From Escherichia coli O157:H7 str. 2011EL-2287 (GTDB lineage: Bacteria > Pseudomonadota > Gammaproteobacteria > Enterobacterales > Enterobacteriaceae), in assembly GCA_000614405.2 (NCBI GenBank), contig GCA_000614405.2_3612.1: a stretch of 64,000 nucleotides of DNA. One strand, 5' to 3'. This document shows positions 38,212-53,379 of this stretch, in pieces (the stretch's first letter is position 1; each line of letters opens with the position of its first letter). Position numbers and translations under genes: made by a program. The notes under the pieces are model-generated. The model was not told where the DNA came from and made no database searches. It saw only the letters and a list, made by a program, of their open reading frames with translations.

Positions 38212-38526
38212 CTACCAGGTCACTGTCAAGTAGGCAACCGTGTTATTTTTCTCTGGAGAGATGCCAACAACATCTACCTGTAGACCTCCTGCCCTCAAAT
38301 CCCCAACAATATGCGGGAAGTAATCTGAGAGATGCGAGGGTAGATTTATCGAAAATCCGCATCCCAGAAAGCCTGCTAACGCTTTATTTTGTATCTCCCC
38401 TACAATCGCATCATAAATGGAGTTAAGCTCGTCAGGGAGCGTTACAGGACGTTTTAGCGCTAACTGGTGTAATTTGTCCTTAGCACTCATTTTCATTTCA
38501 GGTCTACCTCTGGTGGTGCCAACCAC
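38212..38526 (-). CDS. hypothetical protein
   Basis: ORF overlapping the end of the upstream methyltransferase gene. Confidence 0.45.
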   Translation of the reverse strand: MVGTTRGRPEMKMSAKDKLHQLALKRPVTLPDELNSIYDAIVGEIQNKALAGFLGCGFSINLPSHLSDYFPHIVGDLRAGGLQVDVVGISPEKNNTVAYLTVTW

Positions 38527-39026
38527 ATAAATGGCGGCAAGCCTAAACGGTTTTTCTTATCCCACACAAAATATGCATATGCTTGCCCGTCAGTTCTGCC
38601 ATTTGATTGAAATGACGGACGCTTAGATATTGTGATCACAGTGGTAGGTGCATTATCAAGCCACCATTCAAATCTGGCTTTGCTTTCCAGAAAATTAAGA
38701 CGTAAAAGCATAATAACTACGTCAGCATCTTTCAACGCCTTGTCTACAAACTCACGAGCCAAGCTGTATGGTGGGTTGGTGATAATACAGTCAACATGGT
38801 TGTATTCTGTATTCAGATAGTCAACACCTTCTTGGATTTCTCCCCATGCAGATCCTAACGGCATACGGGAGTAGAACACACCTGAGGCACTATTCCTGCA
38901 AGGCTCTAAGTAGGTCCAGTCTTCTGGGAACGGAATAAGGTCATACAGCCCTTCTGCACACCACTCCGGTGTCACATACTCATCGTAGGCGTTACGTTGT
39001 TCATCAGGTTTTCTAGCACAAGTCAT
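38493..39026 (-). CDS. DNA methyltransferase (N6-adenine or N4-cytosine class)
   Basis: Catalytic motif IV ITNPPY. Confidence 0.7.
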   Translation of the reverse strand: MTCARKPDEQRNAYDEYVTPEWCAEGLYDLIPFPEDWTYLEPCRNSASGVFYSRMPLGSAWGEIQEGVDYLNTEYNHVDCIITNPPYSLAREFVDKALKDADVVIMLLRLNFLESKARFEWWLDNAPTTVITISKRPSFQSNGRTDGQAYAYFVWDKKNRLGLPPFMWLAPPEVDLK

Positions 39027-39047
39027 GCAAATCTCCAGATCATAAAA

Positions 39048-39067
39048 GCCCTCCGAAGAGGGCTTTA
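39048..39067 (-). terminator. terminator-like hairpin after the ClpP-like gene (minus strand)
   Basis: AAGCCCTC-TTCG-GAGGGCTT followed by TTATGATC on minus strand. Confidence 0.4.
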
Positions 39068-39077
39068 GAATTAATGT

Positions 39078-40127
39078 TTAAACTTCTTCGACAATTCCTG
39101 CACCCAGGATTTTTTCATTGAGCTCTTTTGCTGTTTTAATAATATTATCTACCAGACGCTTGCGAGTCTTATCTTTCACCTTAACCTCTTCACCGCCGTT
39201 CAGAGTAGTCTTCAATTGAGACAGAATATCCTGAAGTTCAACGACAGAGAATCTCTGCAGATCTTCTGAAGTAATCTCACCCAGGGCAATTCGGACGGTC
39301 TCGCCACTTTCCATCTGCAGATTCAGGAACACAGTGTGAACATCACCTTTCGAACCACCCGCTTTTGCAGATTCAACAGCATGAACTAACTCATCTAAAG
39401 ATGTGCACTGGTGAATCTCCGGAAGACCTGCTTCACCTAACACGCCTTCTTCATCACCTTTTGCCAGAAGCTTTTTCGGTTTTTGTCCGTTCTGGATGCG
39501 TTGTATGTTGCCTTCATCCAGAATAATAGCTCCAGTGCGTGCTGCCAGCTCTTCTCCGTCCAACCACACTTCGCCACCAGCTGTGATGGATGCGATCTCA
39601 TCTTCTGTCAGCACCCCACCGTAGTATTTTTCGATTAAGCGTTCGAAACGTTTTTTCCAGTAGCTGACCTGAGTATTCATGTTCACACCGTTACCATAAG
39701 TGCCACCTTGGTAGTAGTGGAACATAAACTCTGTGTCCGGAGCCACAGTGCGTTCTTTGCAACCCAGCCATAAGATTGTTCCCGCAGAGCAGCACATCCC
39801 TTCAGCATGTGCAACAACGCTTGCCTGAGACTCGCGGAATGCCTGCAGATAAGCCATTGCAATGTGCACGCAACCCCCAGGACTATTGATGATCACCCGA
39901 ATGCTTTCTTCCGGCTGAGCCATACGGATCGTCTGCAGACGAGACATATGATCTTGTAAGTCTTCCAAATCGTCGATATAAAGAACGTGGTCAACAACTG
40001 GTGTTGGGTAGCTGTATGTTTCCATAATACCACCCGGCATACCGAACATTTTATTACTCATAGGTTCGAAACCGTTCTGTTTTTCTTTCATGCCGTGTAC
40101 CATGGTGCTACGAGGTGTTAAATTCAT
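39078..40127 (-). CDS. ClpP-family serine protease homolog with about 150-aa C-terminal extension
   Basis: INSPGGCVH motif and ClpP-like Ser (CCSAGT) context; 349 aa. Confidence 0.65.
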   Translation of the reverse strand: MNLTPRSTMVHGMKEKQNGFEPMSNKMFGMPGGIMETYSYPTPVVDHVLYIDDLEDLQDHMSRLQTIRMAQPEESIRVIINSPGGCVHIAMAYLQAFRESQASVVAHAEGMCCSAGTILWLGCKERTVAPDTEFMFHYYQGGTYGNGVNMNTQVSYWKKRFERLIEKYYGGVLTEDEIASITAGGEVWLDGEELAARTGAIILDEGNIQRIQNGQKPKKLLAKGDEEGVLGEAGLPEIHQCTSLDELVHAVESAKAGGSKGDVHTVFLNLQMESGETVRIALGEITSEDLQRFSVVELQDILSQLKTTLNGGEEVKVKDKTRKRLVDNIIKTAKELNEKILGAGIVEEV

Positions 40128-40187
40128 GAGAAATCCTTAATATTGGAAGTTGAAAGCTATTTATTTAAACCTGATTCACATTTACCT

Positions 40188-40499: not shown

Positions 40500-40602
40500 A
40501 CTATCTCCTTCTCCTTGTCTTGTCCGATAATAATATCTAAAGCTTACCTGTTTGTCAACAACTGTTTTAGATATTTAAGGGTGGAATAACCACCCTTCTG
40601 TA

Positions 40603-41391
40603 TTACTCGGAAACAGGGGTCCAAATATGATTTGCACGATCCTCTATAAGATTGAGAGCAATCTGACGACCCAACCCGGAACGAACGACATCGTCTGGAC
40701 TATCAAAGCTGATCATTCCAACCTCGGGATCTGGATGACGAGTAAAGAAATCCGTCACCCATGCAAGGCCAGATTTACCAGGGATGTCACGTTGACTATT
40801 ATCGCCCATAATTACAAGGGTGGCCTGATCAGAGATCCTTGTAATAATTGACAACATTTCTTCAGGGTTAGTTTGCTGTGCCTCGTCAATCAGGACAAAG
40901 CATCGCTCATCGAAACTACGACCACGAATGCTTTCAACTTCACAAATCTCGATACGGCTGTTCTGACCATCTCCCAGCATTGCGGCAAAAGCACCTTTGC
41001 CAACACGACGACAAATAGTGTCCATCATGCTTCGAAGATAGGGCCACAGTTTTTGCATTGCATTCCCTGGTTTAAATCCTGAAGTCTTTCCTGTCTGAAC
41101 GTAAGGACGTGCAACAATGATCTTATCAATCTCGTTCTTACGCAGAAGATCACCTGCATATGCAGATGCCATGAATGTCTTACCGGATCCAAACACACCG
41201 TTTACAATAATAATCTTACGTGACCCTAGATAATCAAGATACTTTTGCTGCTTCTTATTCATTGGTCGGAGAGCTGGAGCAGTGTGCTCTCTTTCGTCAG
41301 CAAATTTCTCAGCAGCCTTACGCAGGCGATCAGATTTGCGAGCCTCTCTAGCTTCATCACGCATGCGTTTTGTTTCTTTAGCTCGACCCAT
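40603..41391 (-). CDS. phoH: PhoH-like ATPase
   Basis: Walker A GVFGSGKTFMA; Walker B-like VLIDEAQ; 262 aa. Confidence 0.75.
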   Translation of the reverse strand: MGRAKETKRMRDEAREARKSDRLRKAAEKFADEREHTAPALRPMNKKQQKYLDYLGSRKIIIVNGVFGSGKTFMASAYAGDLLRKNEIDKIIVARPYVQTGKTSGFKPGNAMQKLWPYLRSMMDTICRRVGKGAFAAMLGDGQNSRIEICEVESIRGRSFDERCFVLIDEAQQTNPEEMLSIITRISDQATLVIMGDNSQRDIPGKSGLAWVTDFFTRHPDPEVGMISFDSPDDVVRSGLGRQIALNLIEDRANHIWTPVSE

Positions 41392-41429
41392 GTTGGGACT
41401 CCTTTCAGATTGAGATGTGCCAAGTACTT

Positions 41430-41954: not shown

Positions 41955-42428
41955 CTAGTCTACCTGGACCCAACCGCCTGATACTTTTTTAAACATTCTT
42001 TGGTTATCACTGCCTCGGAACGGTTTCTTGGTTGGTAAATCTTTTACATACTTACCGTCAATGATGATATCAGCCAGTTTAAGAACATCACTAGAGATAT
42101 GGTCAAATGTGAACCCAGTATATACAAGAATAGTTTTCTTGTCACCAAATTTTTCCTTAATTTTCTCCATCAGGCTAATAATATCTGGCTCATTATAGTA
42201 TGCTAAGGGTTCTCCACCCAGCAGAGAGATACCGCACACAGACGGGTTATCTAAATCTGACAAGATTTTTTGCAAGTCTTCTTCAGTAAACTCTCTTCCC
42301 TTATCTTTTGACCAAAATGCCTGATTAAAGCAACCAGGGCAAGCGTGTGGGCACCCAGATACCCACAAGGCAGTTCTAATACCTGGCCCTTCGGTGTAAG
42401 ATATTTCTGTGTATCCGGCAATATTCAT
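41955..42428 (-). CDS. nrdG: anaerobic ribonucleotide reductase activating protein (radical SAM)
   Basis: CPHACPGC radical-SAM cysteine motif; 157 aa; adjacent to nrdD. Confidence 0.8.
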   Translation of the reverse strand: MNIAGYTEISYTEGPGIRTALWVSGCPHACPGCFNQAFWSKDKGREFTEEDLQKILSDLDNPSVCGISLLGGEPLAYYNEPDIISLMEKIKEKFGDKKTILVYTGFTFDHISSDVLKLADIIIDGKYVKDLPTKKPFRGSDNQRMFKKVSGGWVQVD

Positions 42429-42604: not shown

Positions 42605-43867
42605 TCAGCAACCACAACTTCCGTAGTGCTTAACCCGTTCTATAACTTCCGCTTGCTTACCTTTATTGTAAGGACGGGAGTTTGGACTAGACAGGTACCC
42701 GGATACACGTCTGATCACACTGATCGTTCCCTCTTCATGGTTTCCACACTCTGGGCATACGAATCCCTTAGCTGTTGCACTGAACTCACCAGAGAAACCA
42801 CACTTAAGACATTTATCCACAGGCTGGTTGATACCAAAATACATAATGTGTTTATATCCAAAATCAACAAGAGCTTCCAAAGCATCTAAGTTGTTTTTCA
42901 GATTTGGTGTCTCTACGTATCCGATGTTGCCACCAGAGGAGATCATAGCAAAACCTTCCTCATACGCCCACTTATCAAAAGGAGAGCTATTGATCCATAC
43001 TGGCTGATGGAAACTGTTGGTGAGATATTCATGCTCGTGCTTCAACACTTCAGGATATTCACGATCCAGACAGGTTGCAGCTTTATAGCATAGACTCTCA
43101 GAAGGGGTGCCGTACAAGCTAAACGCTAGTCTACTTTCCTTCTTGTATCGCTCACAAGCATCTCTCATGTGCTGAAGTATTCCAAGAGCTAAAGCCTTGT
43201 CACCCTCCCTGCCCAAAATCTGACAGGTTTCATACACACCAATATACCCAATACTGATGGAAGCGTACCCGTCATAGAAGAGTTTATCAATACTCTCTTC
43301 AGGATCCAGGCGAGCAAGAGCGCCTTCACACCACATGATAGGGTTCTGCCCTGCCTTTGTTCCTTTTAGACGGTTAACCCTTACAAGGTGAGCCTCGTAT
43401 GCAAGATCCAGGTATTCGTCAAGAACTGCAAAGAAATCAACACCTTCCGTTTTAGCTTTTGCCGCAATCATTGGCAGGTTAAGGCTAACAACGCCTAAGT
43501 TAAATCTGCCAAGGTATTTCTCCTCGCCTGTTTCCAAGTCATTATATTTGCTAAGAAAACTCCGGCAACCCATGCTCGTTACTTTACCATCTGTCGAGCC
43601 TGTCACTTTACGATTTAGTGGAACAGAAACAAAGTCAGGATAAATCCGCTCTGCAGAGCATTCCAGAGCTAATCGTTTCAAATCATAGTTAGGATCTCCA
43701 GGGTTCATGTTGACACCCTCTTCTAGGAAGAACAGCACTTTAGGGAACACAGGTGTGATACGTTCTTCACCAAGACCCATTTTGTGGACTTTCAAGTAAT
43801 TTTTGGTAATCATTCTACCAAAGACCGAGGTATCCAGTCCTAAACTTAATGTGATAAAAGGGGTTTG
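42605..43867 (-). CDS. nrdD: anaerobic ribonucleoside-triphosphate reductase, exon 2 (C-terminal part with glycyl-radical and Zn-ribbon motifs)
   Basis: Frame open upstream of first ATG (43813) back to 43867, encoding QTPFITLSLGLDTS; glycyl radical motif RRVSGYL; CxxC...CxxC ribbon. Confidence 0.8.
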   Translation of the reverse strand, partial: QTPFITLSLGLDTSVFGRMITKNYLKVHKMGLGEERITPVFPKVLFFLEEGVNMNPGDPNYDLKRLALECSAERIYPDFVSVPLNRKVTGSTDGKVTSMGCRSFLSKYNDLETGEEKYLGRFNLGVVSLNLPMIAAKAKTEGVDFFAVLDEYLDLAYEAHLVRVNRLKGTKAGQNPIMWCEGALARLDPEESIDKLFYDGYASISIGYIGVYETCQILGREGDKALALGILQHMRDACERYKKESRLAFSLYGTPSESLCYKAATCLDREYPEVLKHEHEYLTNSFHQPVWINSSPFDKWAYEEGFAMISSGGNIGYVETPNLKNNLDALEALVDFGYKHIMYFGINQPVDKCLKCGFSGEFSATAKGFVCPECGNHEEGTISVIRRVSGYLSSPNSRPYNKGKQAEVIERVKHYGSCGC

Positions 43868-44124
43868 CGGTCCCCACCCTTATGTTTCCACAAGGCCAGA
43901 CTATCTCTTGCCTGAAATCACACCGTGTGATTCTTAATCAGACCTCTGCGTTTCGGAATCTTCCATAATCCCTACACCAAAAGGTTAGTCGTTACAACCG
44001 CCTCACTCCTTGTGAAGCTAGTCACGGGATTGGCATAGCTTGAGCCTTAGCGTTCCCCGTTAGCCAGCGATCAGCTGACCCCTCATACTGAGGTTAGCAG
44101 AGTTTTAAAACGGCCAGTTTGTTA
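43868..44124 (-). ncRNA. putative group I intron interrupting nrdD
   Basis: 257-nt gap between nrdD halves; follows U of GGU, ends in G; minus-strand segments resemble group I core elements (AAGAGAUAGUCUGG, AACGACUAACC). Confidence 0.55.
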
Positions 44125-44985
44125 ACCGTTGACAGAAGTTAACGTATTGATTTGATAGAGCAAAGTCTGCATGCTGTCAAATACGTCTTTATCTGTCATT
44201 TGCATTGCAACAGTCTCAGCATCTGGCAACCAATGTTCTTGGCAAAATTTAAGGTTCTTCTCATAGGTCGCTTCAGCATACTGTGCCAGATAATGATCAA
44301 TATGGCTCATAGTCTGACCCCCATATTGAGCACTAGCTACTGCACTAGAGATTTGGCTAAGGATTGTTGTTGCAACCCCTATTGACTTCGGCTTACTGAC
44401 ATGGGCGTTACCAATGTTGAATCCGTTTTCCAACATATCTGGATAATTTACCAAACAACAGTTTGTTAACGGACTGATCAAGTAGTCAAGATCATGCACA
44501 TGGATGAAGCCTTTATTGTGCTCTTCTGAGACACGGTCTGGCAGGATCTGTGTTGATGCAAGGTGTTTGCTAAGGATGCCTGCAAGCAGGTCACGATGAG
44601 TGTGTACATGATTGGTAGGCTTATTTGCGTTTTCTTTTGTAAATTCATCACAAGTGCGATCCAAGAAGCCACTAATATCTGCAAGCAGTTTTCCACCTGC
44701 CTCTCTGTTATTATCTCTTGTCTGCCTATACTGGATGTATTCTCTGGCTGCACATTTTAAACCCATATCCATAAGAGCGTCTTCAACAAGGATATGGATA
44801 TTTTTTACAGAGATCGTGCACTGGTCGATTGGTAGATTGTTAGCAACAACTTCATTAACCGCGCAGGCGATCCGGTAAGCTTCTTCTTCAGTATGTCCAG
44901 ACTCAAGTAAGGCGGACTCTGCCGCCTTGATCACCTTAATTCCGTTATAGAACTCTTCTCTACCGTCCCGTTTTACAACTTTCAC
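44122..44985 (-). CDS. nrdD: anaerobic ribonucleoside-triphosphate reductase, exon 1 (N-terminal part; ORF as read includes intron-encoded stop, exon end about 44125)
   Basis: 287-aa ORF ending ...YQINTLTSVNG, a conserved NrdD motif that continues as QTPF in exon 2. Confidence 0.8.
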   Translation of the reverse strand: MKVVKRDGREEFYNGIKVIKAAESALLESGHTEEEAYRIACAVNEVVANNLPIDQCTISVKNIHILVEDALMDMGLKCAAREYIQYRQTRDNNREAGGKLLADISGFLDRTCDEFTKENANKPTNHVHTHRDLLAGILSKHLASTQILPDRVSEEHNKGFIHVHDLDYLISPLTNCCLVNYPDMLENGFNIGNAHVSKPKSIGVATTILSQISSAVASAQYGGQTMSHIDHYLAQYAEATYEKNLKFCQEHWLPDAETVAMQMTDKDVFDSMQTLLYQINTLTSVNG

Positions 44986-45260
44986 TTTTTCTCTCCAAAA
45001 CCATTCTTAACAAAAGAGATGAAATCGTCAGCACCGCCTATATGGACACTGTCAAGATCGCTCTCTAAGAAGATCTGCGGCAACGTTCTAGGGACGATTG
45101 GACTACACTTCTCAATAAGCTCTTCTTTTGTATAGCCCTCGCCAAGTGTCTTATATACAAAAGGCAGATCTTTGCTGACTGCAAATTCTTTTGCTCTTAC
45201 ACAATGTGGGCAGTTATCTTTACCGTAAATGATAAAGAAAAAAGATTTTTCACAGCTCAT
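44982..45260 (-). CDS. glutaredoxin/NrdH-like redoxin
   Basis: CPHC active-site motif; 92 aa; adjacent to nrd genes. Confidence 0.7.
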   Translation of the reverse strand: MSCEKSFFFIIYGKDNCPHCVRAKEFAVSKDLPFVYKTLGEGYTKEELIEKCSPIVPRTLPQIFLESDLDSVHIGGADDFISFVKNGFGEKK

Positions 45261-45263
45261 ATA

Positions 45264-46352
45264 TTAAAACTCCCAAATTTCTTCTTCAGCGTCGTTAACA
45301 GTTGTGTTGACGCGGTAGTCGGTGTTCGACATTTCCTGGTTAGCCGTCTGTTGCAATGAAGGTTTCATCCACACCTGCATAAACGGTAGCGGGTCCTTTG
45401 TTGGCGGCACAAAGTCTTTGTCAATGCCGTAGTAATCATAAATCGGTGAGCAGTTATAGTCAACCCATTCTTTAAGCAACGGTGAGTTAAGACCTATAAT
45501 CGCTCTTCCTTCGCTGAAAATATAGTCACTCCAACCGTACTCTTTGGTTCGTACTTCATCAAGAATCTCTTTTAACTCCCCTTTTATCTCAAGGAAGCTT
45601 TTCTCCCATGCTGGATCATTAAGCAGGATATCAATGATGGCAAAATCACCTTTCGAGTGTAGCATTTCGTCAAGCATGATTTTTTGAACAAGCTGCGCCA
45701 CCTGAACAAAAATACCCTGTTCAGCTACTGCGAAAGTGCATGCAAAACTTGCAATAAACTCAATACTTTCCAGGGCTAAAAGTGCAAAAAGCGCTCTAAG
45801 AATGCATTTCCGCACAATATCTTCTTCAACACTAGAAGGATCCAGTCGGTATTTTGCACCAATAACCTCAAGCTCTTGCATGTATTTGACAATAACGCCA
45901 GATCTGCTCAGAACGTTTTGGTTTTCCTGAATCTCTTCTATAATCTCACGGGCATTGGGGAGGCATTGTCTAACAATCTCTGAGTAAGTTAGTGCGTGAA
46001 GAACTTCAATCTCTGACTGTTTCATCAATAGAGTGAAAAGCTCACTATTAGTGATGAATGGTGAAAAGAGGCAGATGATTGATCTTGCCGCAACGCTATC
46101 AGCTTCCCATTGCCACATCAAGGTCTGCACCATCACATCATAAGTTGACTTGGAGCATGTTACAAAATCTGAAATAGATTGCGACAAATCCACTTCATCC
46201 TCTGCCCAGTCTTGTTCTTTTTGTTTTTTGTACAGTTCGAACAGTTGTGGATATTTTTTGTTGATAGAGTCGTACATACCCATTTGCTGTCCCAGAAACA
46301 GTGGATAGTCACCAGTTTTATGAGCGGTGTTCTCAGCATTAAATACAGCCAT
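45264..46352 (-). CDS. nrdB: ribonucleoside-diphosphate reductase beta subunit
   Basis: 362-aa ORF adjacent to nrdA; acidic C-terminal tail ending EEIWEF. Confidence 0.8.
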   Translation of the reverse strand: MAVFNAENTAHKTGDYPLFLGQQMGMYDSINKKYPQLFELYKKQKEQDWAEDEVDLSQSISDFVTCSKSTYDVMVQTLMWQWEADSVAARSIICLFSPFITNSELFTLLMKQSEIEVLHALTYSEIVRQCLPNAREIIEEIQENQNVLSRSGVIVKYMQELEVIGAKYRLDPSSVEEDIVRKCILRALFALLALESIEFIASFACTFAVAEQGIFVQVAQLVQKIMLDEMLHSKGDFAIIDILLNDPAWEKSFLEIKGELKEILDEVRTKEYGWSDYIFSEGRAIIGLNSPLLKEWVDYNCSPIYDYYGIDKDFVPPTKDPLPFMQVWMKPSLQQTANQEMSNTDYRVNTTVNDAEEEIWEF

Positions 46353-46391: not shown

Positions 46392-48707
46392 TTATAGTGC
46401 ACAGCTTTCGCAATACGGATCTTCAACTGAACTATCTGCAATCAAAGGATAGTTCTTTCTGGTTTCATCTTCAGCCTGTTTCTTGGCATGAAGTTCCTCT
46501 GCCAAGGAGTCACCAGCACCAACCCTAGAGTTTAAATAATACCATGTCTTCATCCCGAATTTAGTGGCACGGATAAGGTACCCTAGCTGCTCCTTCATTG
46601 AAATTTTACCATCTTTCAACTTGGTGTAGTCTATGTATAAATCCGCGCTGATTGCCTGACCTGTGAATTTTTGAATCACAGCATACATATCGATCATGTC
46701 GTTAGTATCAACGTCCCAAGCCGAGGTGTAATACTCTTTCAACTCATCATAGTCAGGAACGATAAACAGCACCTGCCCTTGTGGCGATTTTTTAAAGATA
46801 ATGTGCTCACGGACAGGATAAACCCCATTAGTGGTGTTTGTTGCCAGCGAAGAGCTTTCATTAGGCATATATGCTTCAAGAACGCTATTACGTAGCCCAC
46901 CATTTTCAATGATTTCTTTACGTAACCCTTCCCAATCCTGTTTAAGAGAAGGATCTTTCACCACACTATCGACCTCTTTGTTATAAGTGTCGATTGGTAA
47001 CCAACCTTCTGGATATTTTGTTTTATACATCCACTCGCAGACACCACGCTCTTTTGCCAACCGTAAACTTGCCTTATGCAAGCTGTAGCTGTGAAGTTCT
47101 GCAAGATCGTGAACAAGCTGTTTACTTTCAGGGGATCCGTAAGTAACCTTGTGGCTGGCAATAAAATGTGCAACATTGGTAAGGCCAACCCCGATGGATC
47201 TGCGTTTTTTAACAGTGCTCTCCATATTTTCATACGGATATGTCATGATTTCCATAACATTGTCAATCATAAGCACCGTGTAATATGCAACATCCTCATA
47301 CTCCTCTGGGGTAACCCTTCCAGCTACAAGGGATGACAGGAAGCACAATGCAACTTCGCCATCATCAACATCGTGCTTGAAGATATTACGCATATCTGAA
47401 TAGCCTTTTGTCGGGAGGGCTATTTCTGCACACAGGTTACTTGAATAGATCACATCTTTAAAAGGTGTATGTCTATTCATCTCGTCTGTCCAGTATACGA
47501 ACAGCCTTCCAACCTCAGTACGCTGCGTGAGCAGTTCAACAGCAAGATCTCTAGCTCGGATCCATGTTTTAGGAATACTGTCATCTTTAGCGATACGATC
47601 AACCTCTGCATCAAACTCCTCCATAGACATGGTGAAGATACCTTCATGCAGTTGAGGCGCGTGCTTATAAGAAACAAGCATCCAATCTAAATTCTTAGCC
47701 ACACGGTTGATAAACGACCTATTAATACCTATAGAGTAGTCCATGGTGTTGATTCTTTTTGAAGCAACAGTCATAGGGTTTCTCAAACGGATTAGCTCAT
47801 CAATCTGCGGGTCTAGTGCAAGGAATGATACTGTTGCAGAACCGCCACGTGATTGTTGTCTGTTCTCCTTAACCCCAGCATCAATACCTCGATAATATGG
47901 AATCTTACCCATGTGTTTAATAGTGTTACCACGAACACCATCGCCTGCAGATCTTGATGATAAATAGTAGCCGATACCTGCTTGGTTAACCGTCATTGTG
48001 TACGCAACTTCACGTGCCACACCAATAGATTTTGCTGTATCATCAGCTTTTATTACACAACAAGATGCATACCCTGTCTTACCTGTGCGCAGCCCGTTTA
48101 AGTACGGTGTCGGGGCATTGATCTTTAAGTCGGATAGATAAGTGTATAATTTTACAACATCGTTGATACGACGTTCTTTCGGCATATTCTTCATGACAGC
48201 CATTGCTATTCCCATAAACATCATCTGGGGAGATTCAAACAAGGTGTCTTTAAGAGTATCCTTGATCCCGTATTTGTCGCGAAACTGTTTAAGGACTGCA
48301 TAGCCATAACCGAGATCTTTACTGTGGTCAATAACAGCGTCTAAAGTGTTTAGCTCGGTAAAGCTATAGCCCATATCCTCCCAATACCCTTTCTCAACCA
48401 TGGTATTGTAAAATGATGGTAAGGAAGGGATCTTTGTAAACCCCCCAAAAGCCTCTTTATAAATCTGACCAATAAGAACACGACCAGCCATACGGGAATG
48501 TGCTTCGTCTTTACGGCTAACACAGGAGTCTATGATAGCTTGGTTAACTTCTTTGGTTGTACATCCATCATACAGTCGTTTGTATGCATCCAGTGCAATG
48601 TGTGACCAATTGCCGTTACCGTCGTCACCGAAAATAGCGGCCTTATTTAAACGTTCTGGATCGAATGCCACTTCACATCCGTTGCTTTTAATTACCTTGG
48701 TGATCAA
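46392..48707 (-). CDS. nrdA: ribonucleoside-diphosphate reductase alpha subunit
   Basis: 771-aa ORF (E. coli NrdA is about 760 aa); C-terminal Cys pair (YCESCAL). Confidence 0.85.
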   Translation of the reverse strand: MITKVIKSNGCEVAFDPERLNKAAIFGDDGNGNWSHIALDAYKRLYDGCTTKEVNQAIIDSCVSRKDEAHSRMAGRVLIGQIYKEAFGGFTKIPSLPSFYNTMVEKGYWEDMGYSFTELNTLDAVIDHSKDLGYGYAVLKQFRDKYGIKDTLKDTLFESPQMMFMGIAMAVMKNMPKERRINDVVKLYTYLSDLKINAPTPYLNGLRTGKTGYASCCVIKADDTAKSIGVAREVAYTMTVNQAGIGYYLSSRSAGDGVRGNTIKHMGKIPYYRGIDAGVKENRQQSRGGSATVSFLALDPQIDELIRLRNPMTVASKRINTMDYSIGINRSFINRVAKNLDWMLVSYKHAPQLHEGIFTMSMEEFDAEVDRIAKDDSIPKTWIRARDLAVELLTQRTEVGRLFVYWTDEMNRHTPFKDVIYSSNLCAEIALPTKGYSDMRNIFKHDVDDGEVALCFLSSLVAGRVTPEEYEDVAYYTVLMIDNVMEIMTYPYENMESTVKKRRSIGVGLTNVAHFIASHKVTYGSPESKQLVHDLAELHSYSLHKASLRLAKERGVCEWMYKTKYPEGWLPIDTYNKEVDSVVKDPSLKQDWEGLRKEIIENGGLRNSVLEAYMPNESSSLATNTTNGVYPVREHIIFKKSPQGQVLFIVPDYDELKEYYTSAWDVDTNDMIDMYAVIQKFTGQAISADLYIDYTKLKDGKISMKEQLGYLIRATKFGMKTWYYLNSRVGAGDSLAEELHAKKQAEDETRKNYPLIADSSVEDPYCESCAL

Positions 48708-48934
48708 TTTGCTTCCTCCACTTCACTAACGTATTTATCAAGGCAGGTATCAGTATCTTGCTGGATAAAAGTATCCTCTTCTACAGAGATATTTATAATT
48801 TTACCTGTATACTCGTCATAATAAACATCATCATACATTTTAATATCGTTTGTCAGGCCGTTGAACCAAAGCCAACCAACATATTCTGCCCGACTTGCAA
48901 AACCAAGATCCTTCCACTTGGAGTTATGGCTCAT
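48704..48934 (-). CDS. hypothetical protein (ORF extends to 49012; ATG 48934 has SD AAGGTGGTG)
   Basis: ORF. Confidence 0.45.
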   Translation of the reverse strand: MSHNSKWKDLGFASRAEYVGWLWFNGLTNDIKMYDDVYYDEYTGKIINISVEEDTFIQQDTDTCLDKYVSEVEEAN

Positions 48935-48944
48935 CTTCACCACC

Positions 48945-49445
48945 TTAGCTTTCAATACCGAATAATTTTTCCAGGCGATGCAGATCTTCAAAATTGAAAG
49001 GTTCATCAACAATATGAATATCTTCAGCCTTTTCAGATTGTTTTGTATACTTTCTTACATTAACACGATCCTCTACGGGGATATCATACGGGAGATCTTG
49101 AACAAGCATTGCCTCACCAGGTGCTTTATCCACATCTAAAATATCTACACCGTTATACATTTGCGGGTATCTAAAGTCTGCACGCATAACACCAGCAAAT
49201 ACATCTGCCTTTCGATAATGTGTTGGCTTATTTTTGCATCGAACGTTTTTTCCACGAAGAACATCAATACTTTTTAAATCAAACCCTACGGCAAAGAGTG
49301 CAGCTCGGAGACCGTTTCGTGTGCGAACGTTAAACCCGGGAACGGTAGATAGGAAATCTAAAGTAACTGAAATAAATGTCTTTTTAGGAATCATAACATT
49401 ACTCATATCTGTCTCCATTTCTGGCTCACTAACAAAGTGAGCCAT
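48945..49445 (-). CDS. hypothetical protein
   Basis: 166-aa ORF. Confidence 0.55.
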   Translation of the reverse strand: MAHFVSEPEMETDMSNVMIPKKTFISVTLDFLSTVPGFNVRTRNGLRAALFAVGFDLKSIDVLRGKNVRCKNKPTHYRKADVFAGVMRADFRYPQMYNGVDILDVDKAPGEAMLVQDLPYDIPVEDRVNVRKYTKQSEKAEDIHIVDEPFNFEDLHRLEKLFGIES

Positions 49446-49504: not shown

Positions 49505-50488
49505 TTAACCTTTCACGAAGTGGTTATTAAGCAGTTGTCTGTGCTGAACCCACCCACAAAAGTTGGCAGACCAGAATTTACCATCACGATCTTGATGGGT
49601 TACACCTTCCTGCCAAGTACTGATGTCTTGTGTGATTTCACATGAAGACAGGTAGTAGTTTAAACGTTCCATTGCGTTATCGTGATCCATAGGTGTTGCC
49701 TGGTGCTCGTAAGGGCTTGCATGAATACGATCCCCACCAATCAATTTTTTAGCCACACTGTCTGCCTTTTCAAACGTGCTGTCAATATTTCGATAAGATA
49801 CTTGTGCACAGCAACTAGCACTGATAGACAGAGCTTCTTTAGTATCGAGGATGCAGAGCTTTCCTTCTGTGTCACGTACAGCGTAGTTAAACTCTCCGTC
49901 CAAATAAACGTGCTCTACATATGGGGTGTGCCATTGACCCGGTTTAAGGATCTCAGGGGTGCTATTCACAAGAGCTTCCCACATGCAATTAGCCAACATC
50001 TGAATCGTAGGATCCGCATCGTGCCAGCAACGGAGGTGGAAAAAATTATTCCACTCGGTGCTTGTTACAACTGTTTTCATGCGTTGAAAAGGCTCCACTA
50101 AGCGGTTACATACTTGCTTATGGTAACCAGCAAGGGCGAACTTCTCTGCATGCCAAGCGGCGTTTTTTGCAGCTTCTTTCCAAAATTCTTCAGGAGTTAA
50201 CTCCATGTCAGTGTACTCTACACGGATCTTTTGATCGTGTTCTCCACCATCTTCCATCCCTCGCTTATTTACACCGAAGCGAACTGGCATTGCCGGATTC
50301 TCCACAATCTGTTGCAGCATCTTGCCGACAGGCACTGCACGGGAAGACATGGCGTTTCGGCTGAACACTCGATGTGTCATAAGCTCTGAGTGAATAATTC
50401 GAGGATACTCTAGCTCAAAAGTGGTGATACGCTTACCTTTCTCGGAAATGCTGTCAGCAATGATCTTTGCAGTGCACAGTTTTAGCAT
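49505..50488 (-). CDS. thyX: ThyX-family protein (flavin-dependent thymidylate synthase-like)
   Basis: THRVFSRNAMSSRA matches ThyX signature RHRxxSxNxxSxR; 327 aa is longer than canonical ThyX. Confidence 0.6.
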   Translation of the reverse strand: MLKLCTAKIIADSISEKGKRITTFELEYPRIIHSELMTHRVFSRNAMSSRAVPVGKMLQQIVENPAMPVRFGVNKRGMEDGGEHDQKIRVEYTDMELTPEEFWKEAAKNAAWHAEKFALAGYHKQVCNRLVEPFQRMKTVVTSTEWNNFFHLRCWHDADPTIQMLANCMWEALVNSTPEILKPGQWHTPYVEHVYLDGEFNYAVRDTEGKLCILDTKEALSISASCCAQVSYRNIDSTFEKADSVAKKLIGGDRIHASPYEHQATPMDHDNAMERLNYYLSSCEITQDISTWQEGVTHQDRDGKFWSANFCGWVQHRQLLNNHFVKG

Positions 50489-50688
50489 TATTTAGCTCTC
50501 CTTGTTTTAATTTTGGAAATTTCGTCTGGGTTTATGTTAGCCTTAAATGCAAGGTATCTGTTGAACATATCGGAGCACATGTCTTGGGTGATCCTGGAGG
50601 CATACACCAGCTTGCCACCCAGATCATATACCTCCAGCCAGTCACCGTATCTGACTACAGGATCGCCACCTTTAGAACATCTGCCCAT
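50488..50688 (-). CDS. hypothetical protein
   Basis: ORF. Confidence 0.45.
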   Translation of the reverse strand: MGRCSKGGDPVVRYGDWLEVYDLGGKLVYASRITQDMCSDMFNRYLAFKANINPDEISKIKTRRAK

Positions 50689-50689
50689 T

Positions 50690-51283
50690 TCAAATACCTT
50701 CTAAAAACTTTCCTATTTTATACCAGCTATTAGTGGTATAGTCAACACTGACCTTTAACTCCTCGAATTGCTCATAAGGTGTGTCTTTTAGGATTTTAAT
50801 AACTTCAGGTCGTGAAGCGAATTGGTTCAGGTATTCATGCCTGTCGTCAATTATAACATCTACAGCCACATTACCTTTGAAATGTGTGGCGTAGAAGCCG
50901 TGACCCTGGGTGTGATCATCCAGATCCATAAAATCACTGGTCCAACGCTTTAAGAACCTTGATTTAGATGCAAGGTGACCTTTCTTGCATACCGAGATAA
51001 ATGCGAGCTTGTGACCGCGAGCCACCAAATCTTTCATAACCTCAATAGCCCCCTCTTCAGGCTTAAGGAAGTCGTAGAGGAACGGATCACTCCAGAAATC
51101 AAAAGGTCCTATGATGTTTTCTTTGGGGCGATCAGGCCAATACTTTGACAGATCGTAATACATCAGCCCATTAGAAGGTTTAACGACTGTCTTACTGGCT
51201 GGACCATACAAACGCTCCAACCACTCCCACCATGCTGTTCCTGAATCTACCAGTGTCAAATCTACATCAATTCCGATTAACAT
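50690..51283 (-). CDS. HAD-superfamily phosphatase (putative 5' nucleotidase)
   Basis: N-terminal HAD motif I IGIDVDLTLVD. Confidence 0.55.
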   Translation of the reverse strand: MLIGIDVDLTLVDSGTAWWEWLERLYGPASKTVVKPSNGLMYYDLSKYWPDRPKENIIGPFDFWSDPFLYDFLKPEEGAIEVMKDLVARGHKLAFISVCKKGHLASKSRFLKRWTSDFMDLDDHTQGHGFYATHFKGNVAVDVIIDDRHEYLNQFASRPEVIKILKDTPYEQFEELKVSVDYTTNSWYKIGKFLEGI

Positions 51284-51891
51284 TCTTCTTGGGCCTCTTT
51301 AGCATCAATATACTTGCACACAATCTCCGATGCACATTCCCAAGGTGCACCTTCAGGATTTACAACATCGAACTCAATCCCTTTTATTCCGTTCTTTTCC
51401 AGACTTAGATAGGTTCTGGAATCATTTCCCCAGTCATATCCGACACGGTGAATACGGAACAACAACAGATCTCCACCTGTGCTGTATGCGTACTCACTAA
51501 GGCATGCCAGCTCCTCTTTGAATCCACCATCGGAGTAAACAACAACCCCTTTACCTTTAGGGAAATCTTTCTTCAAGGATGTGACTGCGGCCTTACCGAA
51601 AGCATCTTCACCAAAGATAGGTTTAATCAGATTTTCACTACAATGGATCATCCACTCTCGCGGAGAAACATGCTTACCGTCTATCATTAAGAAAGGGCAA
51701 GGCTCTTCTTTGTAGTGGCGGTCATAAAGTGCATTCCAGAGTTGAGGAGTTACACCAGCTGCCTTAATTGCCACGCTGAAGAGCATCTCCTTAACCTCAC
51801 GATGGTGTGAGTTAGGAATAGCTTCCAACAAGAGATCTGCAATGTGATCCTTACCACTGCTGGGTGGGGCGTTAAGAACAATAATATCCAT
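51277..51891 (-). CDS. putative deoxynucleoside monophosphate kinase (P-loop kinase)
   Basis: N-terminal P-loop LNAPPSSGKD; nucleotide-metabolism neighbourhood. Confidence 0.5.
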   Translation of the reverse strand: MDIIVLNAPPSSGKDHIADLLLEAIPNSHHREVKEMLFSVAIKAAGVTPQLWNALYDRHYKEEPCPFLMIDGKHVSPREWMIHCSENLIKPIFGEDAFGKAAVTSLKKDFPKGKGVVVYSDGGFKEELACLSEYAYSTGGDLLLFRIHRVGYDWGNDSRTYLSLEKNGIKGIEFDVVNPEGAPWECASEIVCKYIDAKEAQEEC

Positions 51892-52094
51892 TAAAAACCT
51901 CCGTGGTATTCTTCAACTGCATCAATAATACTTTTACACTTATCTACCAGCTCGTTAGCCACTACAGCATCGTCTTCCCAAACAGCCTCCTCAATCTGAT
52001 CAAGCAATGATCGCATCTTACTCATCATTTCTGGGATAAAGTTTTCTGAAAAGCTGTCTGGAATTGTTAACTCTAGTGTCATTTCGGTCTCCAA
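51891..52094 (-). CDS. hypothetical protein
   Basis: ORF. Confidence 0.45.
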   Translation of the reverse strand: METEMTLELTIPDSFSENFIPEMMSKMRSLLDQIEEAVWEDDAVVANELVDKCKSIIDAVEEYHGGF

Positions 52095-52109
52095 TCATAC
52101 TATGCGTTA

Positions 52110-52568
52110 TTAGAAGTTTGTTTTTACACGTCCCTTCTCATCAACCTCGTTGTTAGCTAAAAGCGTTACAAAGTCTGTGAAACGAACATGAAGAACCCTT
52201 TTCTTATCAAGGTATCCTAAAGCCACCCCTGAGAAATTTAGCATCAAAGGGGCTAAAGAAGCTCTGGCACTGAAATGCTGTTGTTCTACCCTTCCAACAC
52301 CCTTAGTGTAGGATGGGTTAAGATTGTAAGTTCTGAATCCCAGTTTTGTTGGAGCTTTAGAATTAAAAACGACTTTATAGCGTTTCTTACTCAACTTATG
52401 CTCCAGGATAAGCATTCCCTTATCACCTTTGATAAGTTGAAAATCTGTAAAGTGCTCTTTTAAGACGAAAGGTAGTGCCAGTCCCATCGCCTGTCCTCTT
52501 TGTACCGCTGTCTCACCAAAAGCTTTTGCATCAGTAAGTTCTTTGGTCAAGTCTATGCTTTTGATCAT
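52110..52568 (-). CDS. hypothetical protein
   Basis: ORF. Confidence 0.5.
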   Translation of the reverse strand: MIKSIDLTKELTDAKAFGETAVQRGQAMGLALPFVLKEHFTDFQLIKGDKGMLILEHKLSKKRYKVVFNSKAPTKLGFRTYNLNPSYTKGVGRVEQQHFSARASLAPLMLNFSGVALGYLDKKRVLHVRFTDFVTLLANNEVDEKGRVKTNF

Positions 52569-53379
52569 ACCTGGTCTCCAAAATGTATTGTAGTTCTTTC
52601 TTACCTATACTCTTCATTCCAGCAGTCTTACCTGCTTCTTCTTGAAAAGAAGAATAGCATTCAGCAAACACTCTGTCAACACCGTTAACTAAAGATTTTA
52701 TGAAATATGTTGATTCTTCAGATTTTGGGTCATCATCCCCCAATACTTTTCCAGCATTATACCCAACACGTCTTACACAGAAGTCGTAGTCATCTGGTGT
52801 GCTAAAAGAAAATAACTTATTCTCTCCAATCTCTACAGGATCCCTATTGCACGCCTTTTTCTCCCAAATTTGGAAAACACATGGCACGTCATAAGGTTTG
52901 CCATTAAGTAAAAACGAATTCTTAGGGCACCTTTCGCTGTAGACAAGGTGCATCGACATGTCCAGTTTGTTTGCAAAAAATATTTTTTCAAATGTCCGTG
53001 GCAAGATGAAGGCTATAGCCCCTCCAAGCTCTAGCAATGATGCACAATGGTTAAAGAATTTGCAAGCTAAGGATGAATTCTTGCCAAATGGTGGGTTACC
53101 TATGAAGACATCTGCCTTGGGATGCACCTCCAAGAAGTTTGCCTGAATGCACGGTGTTGGTCCTTCAAATTCAGGATCTGGTACTAAATCGTACGACAGT
53201 ATCTCTGAAAATAGTTTTGAAAAAGAACCCCTTCCAGCAGAAGGCTCAACGTATGCACAATTCCCATACTTATCTTTTACTTTACCAACAAGATATTCTG
53301 CATACTCAGGGTTTGTGTAGTATTTGTCGTTGGACTCTTTCTTGCTCAAAGTGCCTCCAAAAGGAAAAGGGAGGCGCAA
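52531..53379 (-). CDS. DNA N6-adenine methyltransferase
   Basis: SAM motif VEPSAGRGSF and catalytic motif IGNPPFG. Confidence 0.7.
   Translation of the reverse strand: MRLPFPFGGTLSKKESNDKYYTNPEYAEYLVGKVKDKYGNCAYVEPSAGRGSFSKLFSEILSYDLVPDPEFEGPTPCIQANFLEVHPKADVFIGNPPFGKNSSLACKFFNHCASLLELGGAIAFILPRTFEKIFFANKLDMSMHLVYSERCPKNSFLLNGKPYDVPCVFQIWEKKACNRDPVEIGENKLFSFSTPDDYDFCVRRVGYNAGKVLGDDDPKSEESTYFIKSLVNGVDRVFAECYSSFQEEAGKTAGMKSIGKKELQYILETRYDQKHRLDQRTY

Follow-up and report, generated by a model that had tools for sequence, protein, structure and literature searches.

Genomes of rV5-like coliphages (Vequintavirus) carry a DNA-precursor gene block that has been annotated before now. Records for rV5, FFH2 and RudolfGeigy (BASEL collection, = Bas52) label ribonucleotide reductase (RNR) subunits, glutaredoxin, thymidylate synthase, a P-loop NTPase and two N6-adenine methyltransferases; the nucleotidase is labeled merely "hypothetical." The BASEL Vequintavirinae, including RudolfGeigy, were found to be "exceptionally susceptible" to restriction-modification (RM) systems when phages grown in restriction-free K-12 were challenged with a panel of six: EcoKI, EcoCFT_I, EcoRI, EcoRV, EcoCFT_II, and EcoP1_I (PMC8594841). 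Vequintavirinae are also sensitive to ARMADA II and to Druantia III(-A); Druantia III-A reportedly acts on unmodified or methylated DNA and is blocked by other chemical modifications. The pathways of T-hypermodification that PMC8989533 describes begin with a ThyA-family enzyme.

The window analyzed here is a stretch of 64,000 nucleotides from an assembly of Escherichia coli O157:H7 str. 2011EL-2287 (GCA_000614405.2), and 97–98% identity to over 100 sequenced phages, which have these genes annotated, reveals that its phage is a Vequintavirus, RudolfGeigy being 97.4% identical to it. A 15-kb block, in which all named ORFs and motifs were verified and lie on the minus strand throughout (Table 1), exhibits 97–98% nucleotide identity to phages such as RudolfGeigy and FFH2, whose annotation agrees; gene set and order are identical in rV5, FFH2 and RudolfGeigy, and the differences are small. 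It holds NrdAB, NrdDG, glutaredoxin, a ThyX-type synthase, a T4-gp1-family dNMP kinase, an NT5C-type 5′-deoxynucleotidase and PhoH. Because at least 115 phage records retain the block at 90–99% nucleotide identity, the bracketing of nucleotide-metabolism genes by two methyltransferases, already recognized in a preliminary description, is not due to chance. We consider it probable that the region is a conserved Vequintavirus module making canonical dNTPs, flanked by two orphan N6-adenine methyltransferases, and with like probability that it serves canonical dNTP supply and site-specific methylation rather than hypermodification.

Table 1. Features of the DNA-precursor block and its flanks
Feature	Position	Strand	Evidence
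MTase1, small gamma-order amino-methyltransferase, 177 aa	38493..39026	-	phrog_799
ClpP-like protease	39078..40127	-	Pfam CLP_protease E 2e-12; annotated in relatives
PhoH-like ATPase	40603..41391	-	Pfam PhoH E 3.6e-47
NrdG, activase of anaerobic RNR	41955..42428	-	annotation of 97% identical relatives
NrdD (class III RNR), two exons (44122-44985 + 42605-43813)	42605..44985	-	split ORFs
Glutaredoxin	44982..45260	-	CPHC motif in translation; annotation
NrdB, class Ia RNR small subunit	45264..46352	-	annotation; PVP-SE1 orthologue with Ribonuc_red_sm
NrdA, class Ia RNR large subunit	46392..48707	-	annotation; PVP-SE1 orthologue with Ribonuc_red_lgN/lgC
Two conserved ORFs of unknown function	48704..49445	-	phrog_5488, phrog_5557
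ThyX-like flavin-dependent thymidylate synthase, long THR-type segment-permuted clade, 327 aa	49505..50488	-	Pfam Thy1, phrog_85, AF2, Foldseek
Conserved 66-aa ORF	50488..50688	-	phrog_4903; stop overlaps ThyX start by 1 nt
HAD-superfamily NT5C-type 5′(3′)-deoxyribonucleotidase-like phosphatase	50690..51283	-	Pfam NT5C, phrog_420
P-loop (NAPPSSGKD) kinase, T4 gp1 dNMP-kinase PHROG family	51277..51891	-	phrog_139
Two conserved ORFs of unknown function, 67 aa + 152 aa	51891..52568	-	phrog_7393, phrog_9938
MTase2, gamma-class N6-adenine methyltransferase, type II DNA methyltransferase kind	52531..53349	-	PADLOC MTase_II, AF2, Foldseek
Intrinsic-terminator-like hairpin (GGGAGGC-TTGC-GCCTCCC), then T-run	53368..53387	-	between DnaQ-like exonuclease gene and MTase2

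Judged by homology, NrdAB (aerobic) and NrdDG (anaerobic) would carry out ribonucleotide reduction with the phage glutaredoxin. The long ThyX-type enzyme would convert dUMP to dTMP using methylene-tetrahydrofolate and reduced flavin, a reaction which yields no dihydrofolate and thus fits the lack of a phage DHFR. The gp1-family kinase would raise dNMPs to dNDPs, the nucleotidase may trim or balance dNMP pools and, after replication, the methyltransferases would place m6A at specific motifs. The PVP-SE1 orthologue of NrdG is assigned to Radical_SAM/Fer4_12. The two NrdD exons are parted by an intron of approximately 300 nt without an ORF, for which an Rfam group I intron match (43878-44134; 29.4 bits, E 1.7e-5) was sub-threshold. 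RudolfGeigy NrdD is likewise annotated as a two-piece join; the FFH2 intron contains an HNH ORF, whereas that of the window has no homing-endonuclease ORF.

The dNMP-kinase-like and HAD-phosphatase genes of the preliminary description were recovered in profile searches. The kinase matches phrog_139 ("dNMP kinase") with E 2.5e-43 over profile positions 83–265, and a T4 gp1 sequence occupies the same range (83–261; E 1.8e-65); when the two were compared using hhalign the P-loop alone aligned. This family is represented in over 1,500 phage records, including small (~40–55 kb) coliphage and Klebsiella phage genomes in which we know of no base replacement. The nucleotidase exceeds the Pfam NT5C cutoff (26.5 versus 24.8 bits), matches phrog_420, and possesses motif I (DVDLT; DxDxT) and motif IV (IIDD; DD). 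Its gene overlaps that of the kinase by 7 nt and, since the 67-aa ORF, kinase, nucleotidase, 66-aa ORF and ThyX genes overlap or abut, they probably form a single operon. Between ThyX and NrdA, the mechanical ORFs span 48704-49012 (102 aa) and 48945-49445 (166 aa); relatives give the first as a 76-aa protein.

The kinase-nucleotidase-ThyX-RNR block is syntenic across the Vequintavirinae. PVP-SE1 and phiTE keep the order exonuclease, kinase, nucleotidase, small ORF, ThyX, two small ORFs (the annotation of phiTE_157/158 notes their similarity to the PVP-SE1 pair), NrdA, NrdB. The ThyX slot of phiTE is occupied by a canonical-order protein of 226 aa, which suggests that the two are functionally equivalent. 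A phi92-like contig has a thymidine kinase next to the nucleotidase (an NT5C-bearing orthologue) and ThyX.

The ThyX-family protein had been described as unusually long, with Thr replacing the first Arg of the RHR signature, and both observations hold: it is ~100 residues longer than canonical ThyX (T. maritima TM0449, M. tuberculosis, PBCV-1 A674R), and the T of its signature motif THRVFSRNAMSSR aligns with R78 of T. maritima. It matches phrog_85 (E 1.6e-112) and Pfam Thy1 (37.4 bits, cutoff 24.8), the latter just over profile positions 60–190, and falls below the NCBIfam thyX equivalog (TIGR02170) cutoff (40 versus 87.9 bits). Comparison of its AF2 model (pLDDT 77, pTM 0.80) to the PDB using Foldseek gave 17 matches at E ≤0.001, all of them ThyX structures (canonical enzymes, E 6e-5), with PolB (4p5a) just outside at 1.3e-3. 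The clade comprises thousands of sequences, mostly phage or metagenomic; the Thr is near-invariant (232 of 236 motif-bearing homologues), and inteins are present in some members. Permutation tests reveal that the helix pair bearing HxSPxEH, which precedes the core in canonical ThyX, here follows it, and the window protein differs further in having extra β-hairpins and a conserved C-terminal tail.

Alignment, together with a review of solved ThyX enzymes, indicates that seven of ten canonical ligand residues are retained: H39, R40, S48, R50, and R153 (T. maritima H79, R80, S88, R90, and R174), S258 (M. tuberculosis S71) and, by spacing only, R30 (M. tuberculosis R87). R129, positioned by eye, is the probable R147 equivalent. 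Three of the ten are replaced. The protein has Thr for the first Arg of RHR, A51 in place of the Tyr "lid" and T144 where canonical ThyX has R165. The changes R78 to T, Y91 to A, E86 to A, and R165 and N163 to T are invariant in a 20-sequence alignment (A1), as are the remaining dUMP and phosphate ligands; in solved structures the altered positions contact the flavin ring, dUMP, and FAD phosphates. The shared xHRxxSxxxxSxR, R174 and H53 equivalents and Ser of HxSP are consistent with the same reaction. No biochemical study of this large rearranged clade was found in the literature and, since the equivalog cutoff is failed, ligands are lost and the segment order is non-canonical, ordinary dTMP synthesis is something that we infer.

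It had also been proposed that these enzymes resemble sets used by phages to make modified nucleotides or to methylate their DNA against restriction. The former is not upheld. Neither the window nor the complete RudolfGeigy genome revealed a ThyA-family hydroxymethylase, dNTPase (dCTPase/dUTPase/dTMPase), DHFR, 5-hmdU DNA kinase or glycosyl/amino-acid (base) transferase; tblastn detected no ThyA, FolA, or Dut homologues in either (E >0.6), no modification enzymes are annotated in RudolfGeigy, and close relatives are restriction-sensitive. As to the latter, both proteins are amino-methyltransferases of the N6-adenine (gamma) type, which makes it plausible that phage DNA is methylated at specific sites. 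Near-identical phages are restricted and sensitive to Druantia III-A, and therefore any protection would be confined to motifs outside the tested panel. Restriction sites are not avoided in the 64 kb (374 GATC, 8 GAATTC, and 26 GATATC). For Vequintavirus phages, neither a nucleoside analysis nor a methylome was found in the literature.

MTase1, first proposed from its ITNPPY motif, was confirmed by the sequence DCIITNPPYS (IITNPPY) and a match to phrog_799 ("DNA methyltransferase," E 5.5e-67). It possesses a variant motif I (EPCRNSASGVF), and matches to Pfam EcoRI_methylase and Dam and to TIGR01712 were weak and sub-threshold. The RudolfGeigy orthologue is labeled "putative N6 adenine methyltransferase"; the gene adjoins the ClpP-like gene in PVP-SE1, GAP31, FENT2, Hena1, and SalP219, and further relatives have homologues. 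For MTase2, proposed from IGNPPFG in an ORF reaching 53379, motif and family stand but the start does not: the terminator-like hairpin has the TTG at 53379 in its loop, and translation most likely starts from the TTG at 53349, which directly follows GGAGG and gives a 272-aa protein in agreement with public records. Its motifs (YYTNP, EPSAGRGSF, and IGNPPFG within VFIGNPPFGKN) are followed by a C-terminal domain of ~100 aa, and its AF2 model has a pLDDT of 89. Neither gene has an adjacent endonuclease or restriction partner; both are orphans. In relatives, two further methyltransferases lie immediately upstream of the window.

The long THR-type ThyX might instead be a neofunctionalized paralogue (acting on dCMP or UMP, using another flavin or reductant, or non-catalytic), with dTMP supplied by host ThyA. 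The failed equivalog cutoff, the invariant substitutions at ligand-contacting positions and the precedent of PolB speak for this, but dUMP and phosphate ligands are otherwise invariant, the gene sits in the slot of a canonical-order ThyX within a conserved RNR-kinase-nucleotidase module, and no second thymidylate synthase is encoded in the window or RudolfGeigy. Inteins typically sit at conserved sites of essential enzymes, and their presence argues that the enzyme is strongly selected for. A deviating motif is by itself weak evidence, because the phiTE ThyX also departs from RHR; on balance such a paralogue appears unlikely. It might further be argued that the ThyX-like enzyme acts together with the kinase and the nucleotidase in a pre-replicative pathway, in which the nucleotidase excludes a canonical dNMP and a modified base at least partly replaces the canonical one in virion DNA. 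T4 gp1 phosphorylates hmdCMP, dTMP-specific nucleotidases go with thymine replacement in PBS2 and SPO1-type phages, PolB (a UMP/dUMP methylase) is a ThyX paralogue with another substrate, and in the ThyX clade ligand residues are altered and the topology is rearranged. We nevertheless regard base replacement as highly improbable: the ThyA-type hydroxymethylase with which the T-hypermodification pathways of PMC8989533 begin, the dNTPase, the DNA-level kinase and the transferase are absent from the window and RudolfGeigy, the kinase family is common among phages, and the equivalent module has a canonical-order ThyX in phiTE and a thymidine kinase neighbor in a relative. Within a panel containing EcoRI, EcoRV, and EcoP1_I, moreover, near-identical phages are strongly restricted; they are also sensitive to Druantia III-A, a system reportedly blocked by non-methyl modifications.

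One or both methyltransferases might act on RNA (rRNA/tRNA m6A) or another substrate, unrelated to DNA modification or restriction. The MTase2 family profile matches Ta1320 (E 2.5e-4) and METTL5 (0.04) better than M.TaqI (0.7), its nearest PDB sequences by profile being METTL5-type RNA methyltransferases, the top Foldseek match of the model is TrmN, a tRNA m6A methyltransferase, and several homologues are called "predicted RNA methylase" by JGI; MTase1 has no recognizable separate target-recognition domain in its 177 aa, and its ClpP-like adjacency recurs in divergent relatives. Against this, MTase2 matches the PADLOC type II DNA-methyltransferase model (MTase_II, PDLC03255) over its full length (E 3.3e-34), a bacterial homologue has as neighbors a type I RM system and a small ORF that matches REase_II weakly, and the nearest PDB structures, all amino-methyltransferases, also include M.TaqI, M.BseCI, and CamA, bound to DNA. 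By our reading, gamma-class DNA methyltransferases have this arrangement of motifs, X-I-IV (YxTP, EPxxGxGxF, NPPY/F). We regard a non-DNA substrate as improbable and prefer methylation of phage DNA.

M.TaqI, M.BseCI, CamA, and PADLOC MTase_II share this order, with NPPY/NPPF, with the window enzymes, and MTase2 has a predicted Rossmann methyltransferase fold; the window enzymes are, however, orphans and much smaller than the solved ones. Hypermodification modules (T4 hmC: gp42, gp1, gp56, and glucosyltransferases; SPO1, ViI, and M6, hmU-derived) resemble the window in combining a C5-pyrimidine methyl-transfer enzyme with a nucleotidase and a dNMP kinase of the gp1 family, and differ in the hydroxymethylase, dNTP pyrophosphatase, 5-hmdU DNA kinase and transferase that the window lacks. 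PolB of Streptomyces cacaoi has the ThyX fold and sets a precedent for altered substrate use, whereas the window protein exhibits no specific sequence relationship to it, antibiotic-pathway context or evidence of changed substrate. In Certrevirus phiTE, ThyX has KHQ replacing RHR, pairwise BLAST detects no similarity between it and the window protein, and MTase2 is absent at the corresponding position, whereas exonuclease, phrog_139 kinase, phrog_420 nucleotidase and thymidylate synthase and, beyond them, NrdA, NrdB and glutaredoxin are ordered as in the window.

The 15-kb region carrying the two methyltransferase, ThyX-like, kinase and nucleotidase genes is a known dNTP-supply block, already annotated in a coliphage group that is very common. 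It shows 97-98% nucleotide identity to more than 100 genomes of Vequintavirus (rV5-like) coliphages, and a nucleotide search with the 15-kb region gave one match of at least 80% query coverage in 115 records. The same genes, in the same order, are already annotated in RudolfGeigy (BASEL Bas52), a complete close relative, and in FFH2: a putative N6-adenine methyltransferase, ClpP-like protease, PhoH-like ATPase, NrdG, NrdD (a two-piece join), glutaredoxin, NrdB, NrdA, thymidylate synthase, P-loop NTPase, a second putative N6-adenine methyltransferase and a DnaQ-like exonuclease. All genes of the region are encoded on the minus strand, in keeping with a switch in GC skew near 28 kb. Among more distant phages, the order exonuclease, kinase, nucleotidase, small ORF, ThyX, two ORFs, NrdA and NrdB is common to Salmonella phage PVP-SE1 and Pectobacterium phage phiTE, and on a phi92-like metagenomic contig a thymidine kinase gene adjoins those for the nucleotidase and ThyX. 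The coordinates of the features are collected in the table.

Several unannotated records named "Campylobacter phage" C2, C5, C7, C9, A112b, A141 and A142 (MG065655, MG065658, MG065659, MG065661, MG065662, MG065672 and MG065682; host given as C. jejuni) display 97-98% DNA identity to the Vequintavirus window where compared (1-6000 and 38400-53400), and C5 encodes a kinase protein 100% identical to that of the window. The host label of these records is probably wrong, or the isolates are contaminants.

Features of the window and of related phages
Feature	Coordinates	Strand	Remark
DNA polymerase ORFs flanking the intron	2136-4565, 4833-5189	+	
Group I intron in DNA polymerase gene	4550-4785	+	Rfam RF00028, 64.7 bits, E 4e-14
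MTase1 (177-aa methyltransferase)	38493-39026	-	
MTase1 and ClpP-like protease gene pair	38493-40127	-	
NrdD exons	44122-44985, 42605-43813	-	
NrdD intron	43814-44140	-	about 300 nt
Group I match in NrdD intron	43878-44134		sub-threshold, 29.4 bits, E 1.7e-5
Interval after the ThyX stop	49447-49503	-	hairpin, then promoter candidate
Terminator-like hairpin	49503-49487	-	
Sigma-70 promoter candidate	49475-49447	-	TTGACT, 17 nt, TATAAT
ThyX-like protein	49505-50488	-	327 aa
Nucleotidase (NT5C-type)	50690-51283	-	
Kinase (gp1 family)	51277-51891	-	
MTase2, from probable start	52531-53349	-	272 aa
Terminator-like hairpin	53387-53368	-	8 bp, 6 GC, T-run after
ThyX of phiTE (L029, NC_020201)	10323-11003	-	226 aa
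Two further methyltransferases of RudolfGeigy	64269-65594, 66858-67622		just upstream of window position 1

During infection the region would provide canonical dNTPs. Class Ia and class III ribonucleotide reductases, with the phage glutaredoxin, would yield deoxyribonucleotides whatever the oxygen supply; the enzyme of ThyX type would form dTMP without producing dihydrofolate (no phage DHFR was found); the kinase of the gp1 family would deliver dNDPs while the NT5C-type nucleotidase tunes the dNMP pools, and the methyltransferases would act after replication at specific motifs. We infer all of these activities from homology. The genes for ORF67, the kinase, the nucleotidase, ORF66 and ThyX abut one another or overlap by 1-7 nt, and terminator-like sites enclose them at 53.37 kb and 49.49 kb, an arrangement which suggests co-expression. 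A terminator-like hairpin after the ThyX stop, followed by a near-consensus sigma-70 promoter, suggests that a transcription unit may end with ThyX and a new one begin ahead of the ORF166/NrdA genes.

Two genes of the window are interrupted. A group I intron splits the DNA polymerase gene of the window, and in RudolfGeigy this gene is a two-piece join at the matching position. The NrdD intron, which scores below threshold against the Rfam group I model, holds no ORF; in FFH2 the same intron carries an HNH endonuclease ORF, so that the window copy looks endonuclease-free.

The preliminary description, made from the sequence alone, had listed two methyltransferases and ThyX-like, kinase-like and HAD-phosphatase genes, and all of these are present with their motifs. 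The kinase matches phrog_139 ("dNMP kinase") with an E-value of 2.5e-43 over positions 83-265 and has the P-loop NAPPSSGKD; T4 gp1 matches the same profile at 1.8e-65 (positions 83-261). By way of PHROG 139 the kinase thus belongs to the T4 gp1 homology family. Direct hhalign comparison of the kinase family with the T4 gp1 sequence aligned the P-loop alone (probability 54%), and against PDB neither single-sequence phmmer nor the profile search with this family reached T4 gp1 (1DEK), the profile giving a weak adenylate-kinase P-loop match. A kinase profile (A3, residues 97-192) also matched an Argonaute chain (5i4a, 496-593) at E 3e-4 on the conserved SDGGF motif, probably by chance. The nucleotidase passes the Pfam NT5C cutoff (26.5 versus 24.8 bits), and its translation shows the HAD motifs DVDLT (motif I) and IIDD (motif IV).

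The ThyX-like protein matches PF02511 (Thy1) at 37.4 bits (cutoff 24.8), with residues 23-178 covering profile positions 60-190 of 191, and falls below the NCBIfam TIGR02170 thyX equivalog cutoff (40 versus 87.9 bits). The AlphaFold2 model (pLDDT 77, pTM 0.80) yields Foldseek PDB matches at E<=0.001 to ThyX exclusively (probability 1.00, best E 6e-5, TM normalized to the target 0.45-0.55), PolB appearing just above that threshold; single-sequence phmmer against PDB gave nothing useful for this protein, and a BFVD structure search added little. As had been noticed, the protein is long and a Thr replaces the first Arg of the RHR signature: RHRxxSxxxxSxR reads THRVFSRNAMSSR with the remainder intact, and T38 aligns with R78 of Thermotoga maritima ThyX. 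Thr occupies this position in 232 of the 236 homologues bearing the motif. The clade comprises 5,031 representatives of clusters formed at 50% identity when the limit is E<=1e-3, and 1,987 of them reach E<=1e-30; its sequences are mostly of phage or metagenomic origin, and the named members come almost all from phages. A scan of genome contigs located 17 loci, mostly on MAG contigs. Mapping by sequence alignment and spacing indicates that, of ten dUMP and FAD ligand residues listed for solved ThyX enzymes, seven are kept (H39, R40, S48, R50, R153, S258 and R30) and that three are replaced, namely R78 by T38, the Tyr lid Y91 by A51, and R165 by T144. In solved ThyX enzymes the first RHR Arg touches the flavin ring and dUMP, and the R165 equivalent touches the FAD phosphate (PMC6514825).

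Long-type ThyX homologues of about 520-650 aa (P0246, P0267, P0275 and P0336) contain HNH or LAGLIDADG inteins at differing insertion points; inteins typically reside in conserved sites of essential enzymes. A second, degenerate RHR-like motif, WxQHRQ (aa 313-318), was considered as a remnant of a duplication and rejected, its His being unconserved and the model predicting strands.

The order of the segments also departs from that of canonical ThyX, in which the N-terminal helix pair with HxSPFEH precedes the RHR helix. Here the THR motif (aa 38-50) comes before HASPYEH (aa 256-262), an order found in all 211 homologues having both motifs. Against T. maritima ThyX the alignment of a family profile breaks into three pieces in permuted order, residues 224-270 corresponding to the canonical N-terminal ARVSF...HxTPFEH region, 21-50 to the RHR helix and 127-175 to the R174 helix. 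When residues 208-263 were spliced ahead of 19-205, the Pfam score rose from 37.4 to 47.5 bits and coverage extended to positions 15-190, as against 36-38 bits for control splices with reversed, shuffled or unrelated segments. Constructs from 204 family members, chosen for carrying the HxSPxEH motif, which makes the test partly circular, were scored with an independent HMM made from six canonical ThyX sequences. Putting the real segment in front of the core added 16.3 bits (sd 3.9) and putting it behind added 3.3 bits; a shuffled segment changed the score by -0.4 bits. With HxSPxEH alone left intact the gain was 11.5 bits, so that this motif accounts for most of it and the flanking helices for about 5 bits. 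Residues 211-266 are predicted to form strand, helix, helix, a loop with HASPYEH, and strand, which presumably matches the canonical N-terminal unit of the T. maritima ThyX fold. Local hhalign of ThyX sub-alignments against the six canonical sequences, which was underpowered (Neff about 2), gave even the accepted core a probability below 5%, and paired HASPYEH with HETPFEH and SASCCAQVSY with SAVRAARVSF in colinear fashion. Since the signal comes largely from one seven-residue motif in members selected by motif, the alignments and construct scores support, but do not prove, a circular-permutation-like rearrangement. A literature search, limited to accessible papers, found no description of a permuted ThyX or of this topology.

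On a novel reading, which we consider very improbable, the THR-type permuted clade would not carry out a plain FAD-dependent conversion of dUMP to dTMP. Loss of the first RHR Arg, the Tyr lid and the R165 equivalent would then reflect a different flavin-binding mode, reductant or nucleotide substrate, and Vequintavirus DNA could bear a pyrimidine modification missed by the six restriction-modification systems that have been tried on these phages. The phiTE ThyX has the canonical segment order, is not similar to the window protein in pairwise comparison and bears KHQxxxxxNEESRRY in place of RHR, a second type of departure from the textbook motif within the subfamily; the signature is therefore not universal, and its deviation alone is no evidence for new chemistry. 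Synteny, the canonical-order ThyX in the phiTE slot and the thymidine kinase neighbor all argue for ordinary thymidylate metabolism. That the clade is an ordinary thymidylate synthase with a permuted topology not described structurally is much likelier than altered chemistry, and we would give it roughly even chances. This is a very large, mostly viral ThyX clade with apparently rearranged segments and altered active-site ligands, for which we found no biochemical or structural study. Because antibacterial drugs are directed at ThyX and the enzyme serves as a mechanistic model of flavin-mediated methyl transfer, a natural variant lacking the first RHR Arg and the Tyr lid would be informative.

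Both methyltransferases are orphans with gamma-class motif order. MTase1 has IITNPPY and a variant motif I, and matches phrog_799 ("DNA methyltransferase") at E 5.5e-67; it scores under the curated cutoffs of Pfam Dam (19.2 versus 28.1 bits), EcoRI_methylase (20 versus 26.4) and TIGR01712 (16 versus 97). Its gene adjoins that of the ClpP-like protease in PVP-SE1, GAP31, FENT2, Hena1 and SalP219, with homologues in further relatives, and thus behaves like a core gene; the pair is conserved across divergent relatives. MTase2 combines a motif IV of the NPPY/F type, an FxGxG-like motif I, the order X-I-IV and a class I methyltransferase fold, and none of its motifs YYTNP, EPSAGRGSF and IGNPPFG varies among 24 homologues. 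It has no Pfam match, and aligns over its full length with the PADLOC type II methyltransferase model (MTase_II; E 3.3e-34). The closest solved neighbors of its AlphaFold2 model (pLDDT 89) are TrmN, a type I M subunit, M.TaqI, M.BseCI and CamA; single-sequence phmmer against PDB gave nothing useful for either enzyme. MTase2 is missing from this position in PVP-SE1 and phiTE and is therefore accessory. The preliminary description was right about this gene and its IGNPPFG motif and probably wrong about its start, placed at 53379. That TTG, the first in frame, lies inside the loop of a terminator-like hairpin 3' of the DnaQ-like exonuclease gene, whereas TTG 53349 follows GGAGG and yields the protein of the public annotation; the latter is probably the true start.

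Close relatives encode two more methyltransferases, one of 441 aa and N6-adenine type and the other a Dcm-like C5 enzyme, whose genes end at the left edge of the window, so that the phage would have four rather than two. Site-specific methylation of virion DNA by these enzymes is likely. MTase2 may instead act on RNA, its sequence profile being closer to Ta1320 and METTL5 than to M.TaqI, and so may MTase1; one bacterial homologue of MTase2 adjoins a type I restriction-modification system and a small ORF that matches REase_II weakly, which is weak evidence for a DNA substrate of MTase2. Palindrome statistics of the window revealed only the usual CTAG and GTAC depletion and no pointer to methyltransferase targets.

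It had been proposed that these genes form a DNA modification module. Methylation remains plausible; synthesis of modified nucleotides is not supported by gene content, distribution, synteny or restriction phenotypes. The 231 annotated features of RudolfGeigy include no ThyA-family enzyme, DHFR, dUTPase, dCTPase, dCMP deaminase, DNA-level kinase or base transferase, and tblastn with E. coli ThyA, FolA and Dut gave only E>0.6 in the window and the RudolfGeigy genome. Members of the kinase family were found in more than 1,500 phage records, including many coliphage and Klebsiella phage genomes of about 40-55 kb, small phages that are not known to replace a base. The window has 8 EcoRI, 26 EcoRV and 374 GATC sites, with no sign of avoidance. 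Maffei et al. used a panel of EcoKI, EcoCFT_I, EcoRI, EcoRV, EcoCFT_II and EcoP1_I, and described the Vequintavirinae as "exceptionally susceptible" to restriction-modification systems, seemingly without effective protection (PMC8594841). These phages are sensitive to Druantia III and ARMADA II as well, and according to a preprint Druantia III-A acts on DNA that is unmodified or methylated but is blocked by other chemical modifications. Our literature search found no methylome or nucleoside analysis of any Vequintavirus. The paradox is that phages with four methyltransferases are nevertheless highly restriction-sensitive.

The gene set resembles a modification toolkit, yet it is a standard annotated dNTP-supply block of a group whose restriction sensitivity has been measured, and the region should not be listed as a hypermodification candidate. 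The pathways of thymidine hypermodification described in PMC8989533 start with a ThyA-family dUMP hydroxymethylase. Of the components expected of modules like those of T4, SPO1 and ViI-M6, the RudolfGeigy annotation shows no hydroxymethylase, dNTP-exclusion enzymes or post-replicative transferases or kinase. Such a module would also be expected to make virion DNA broadly resistant to type I-III restriction; the Vequintavirinae are, on the basis of the literature, restriction-sensitive.
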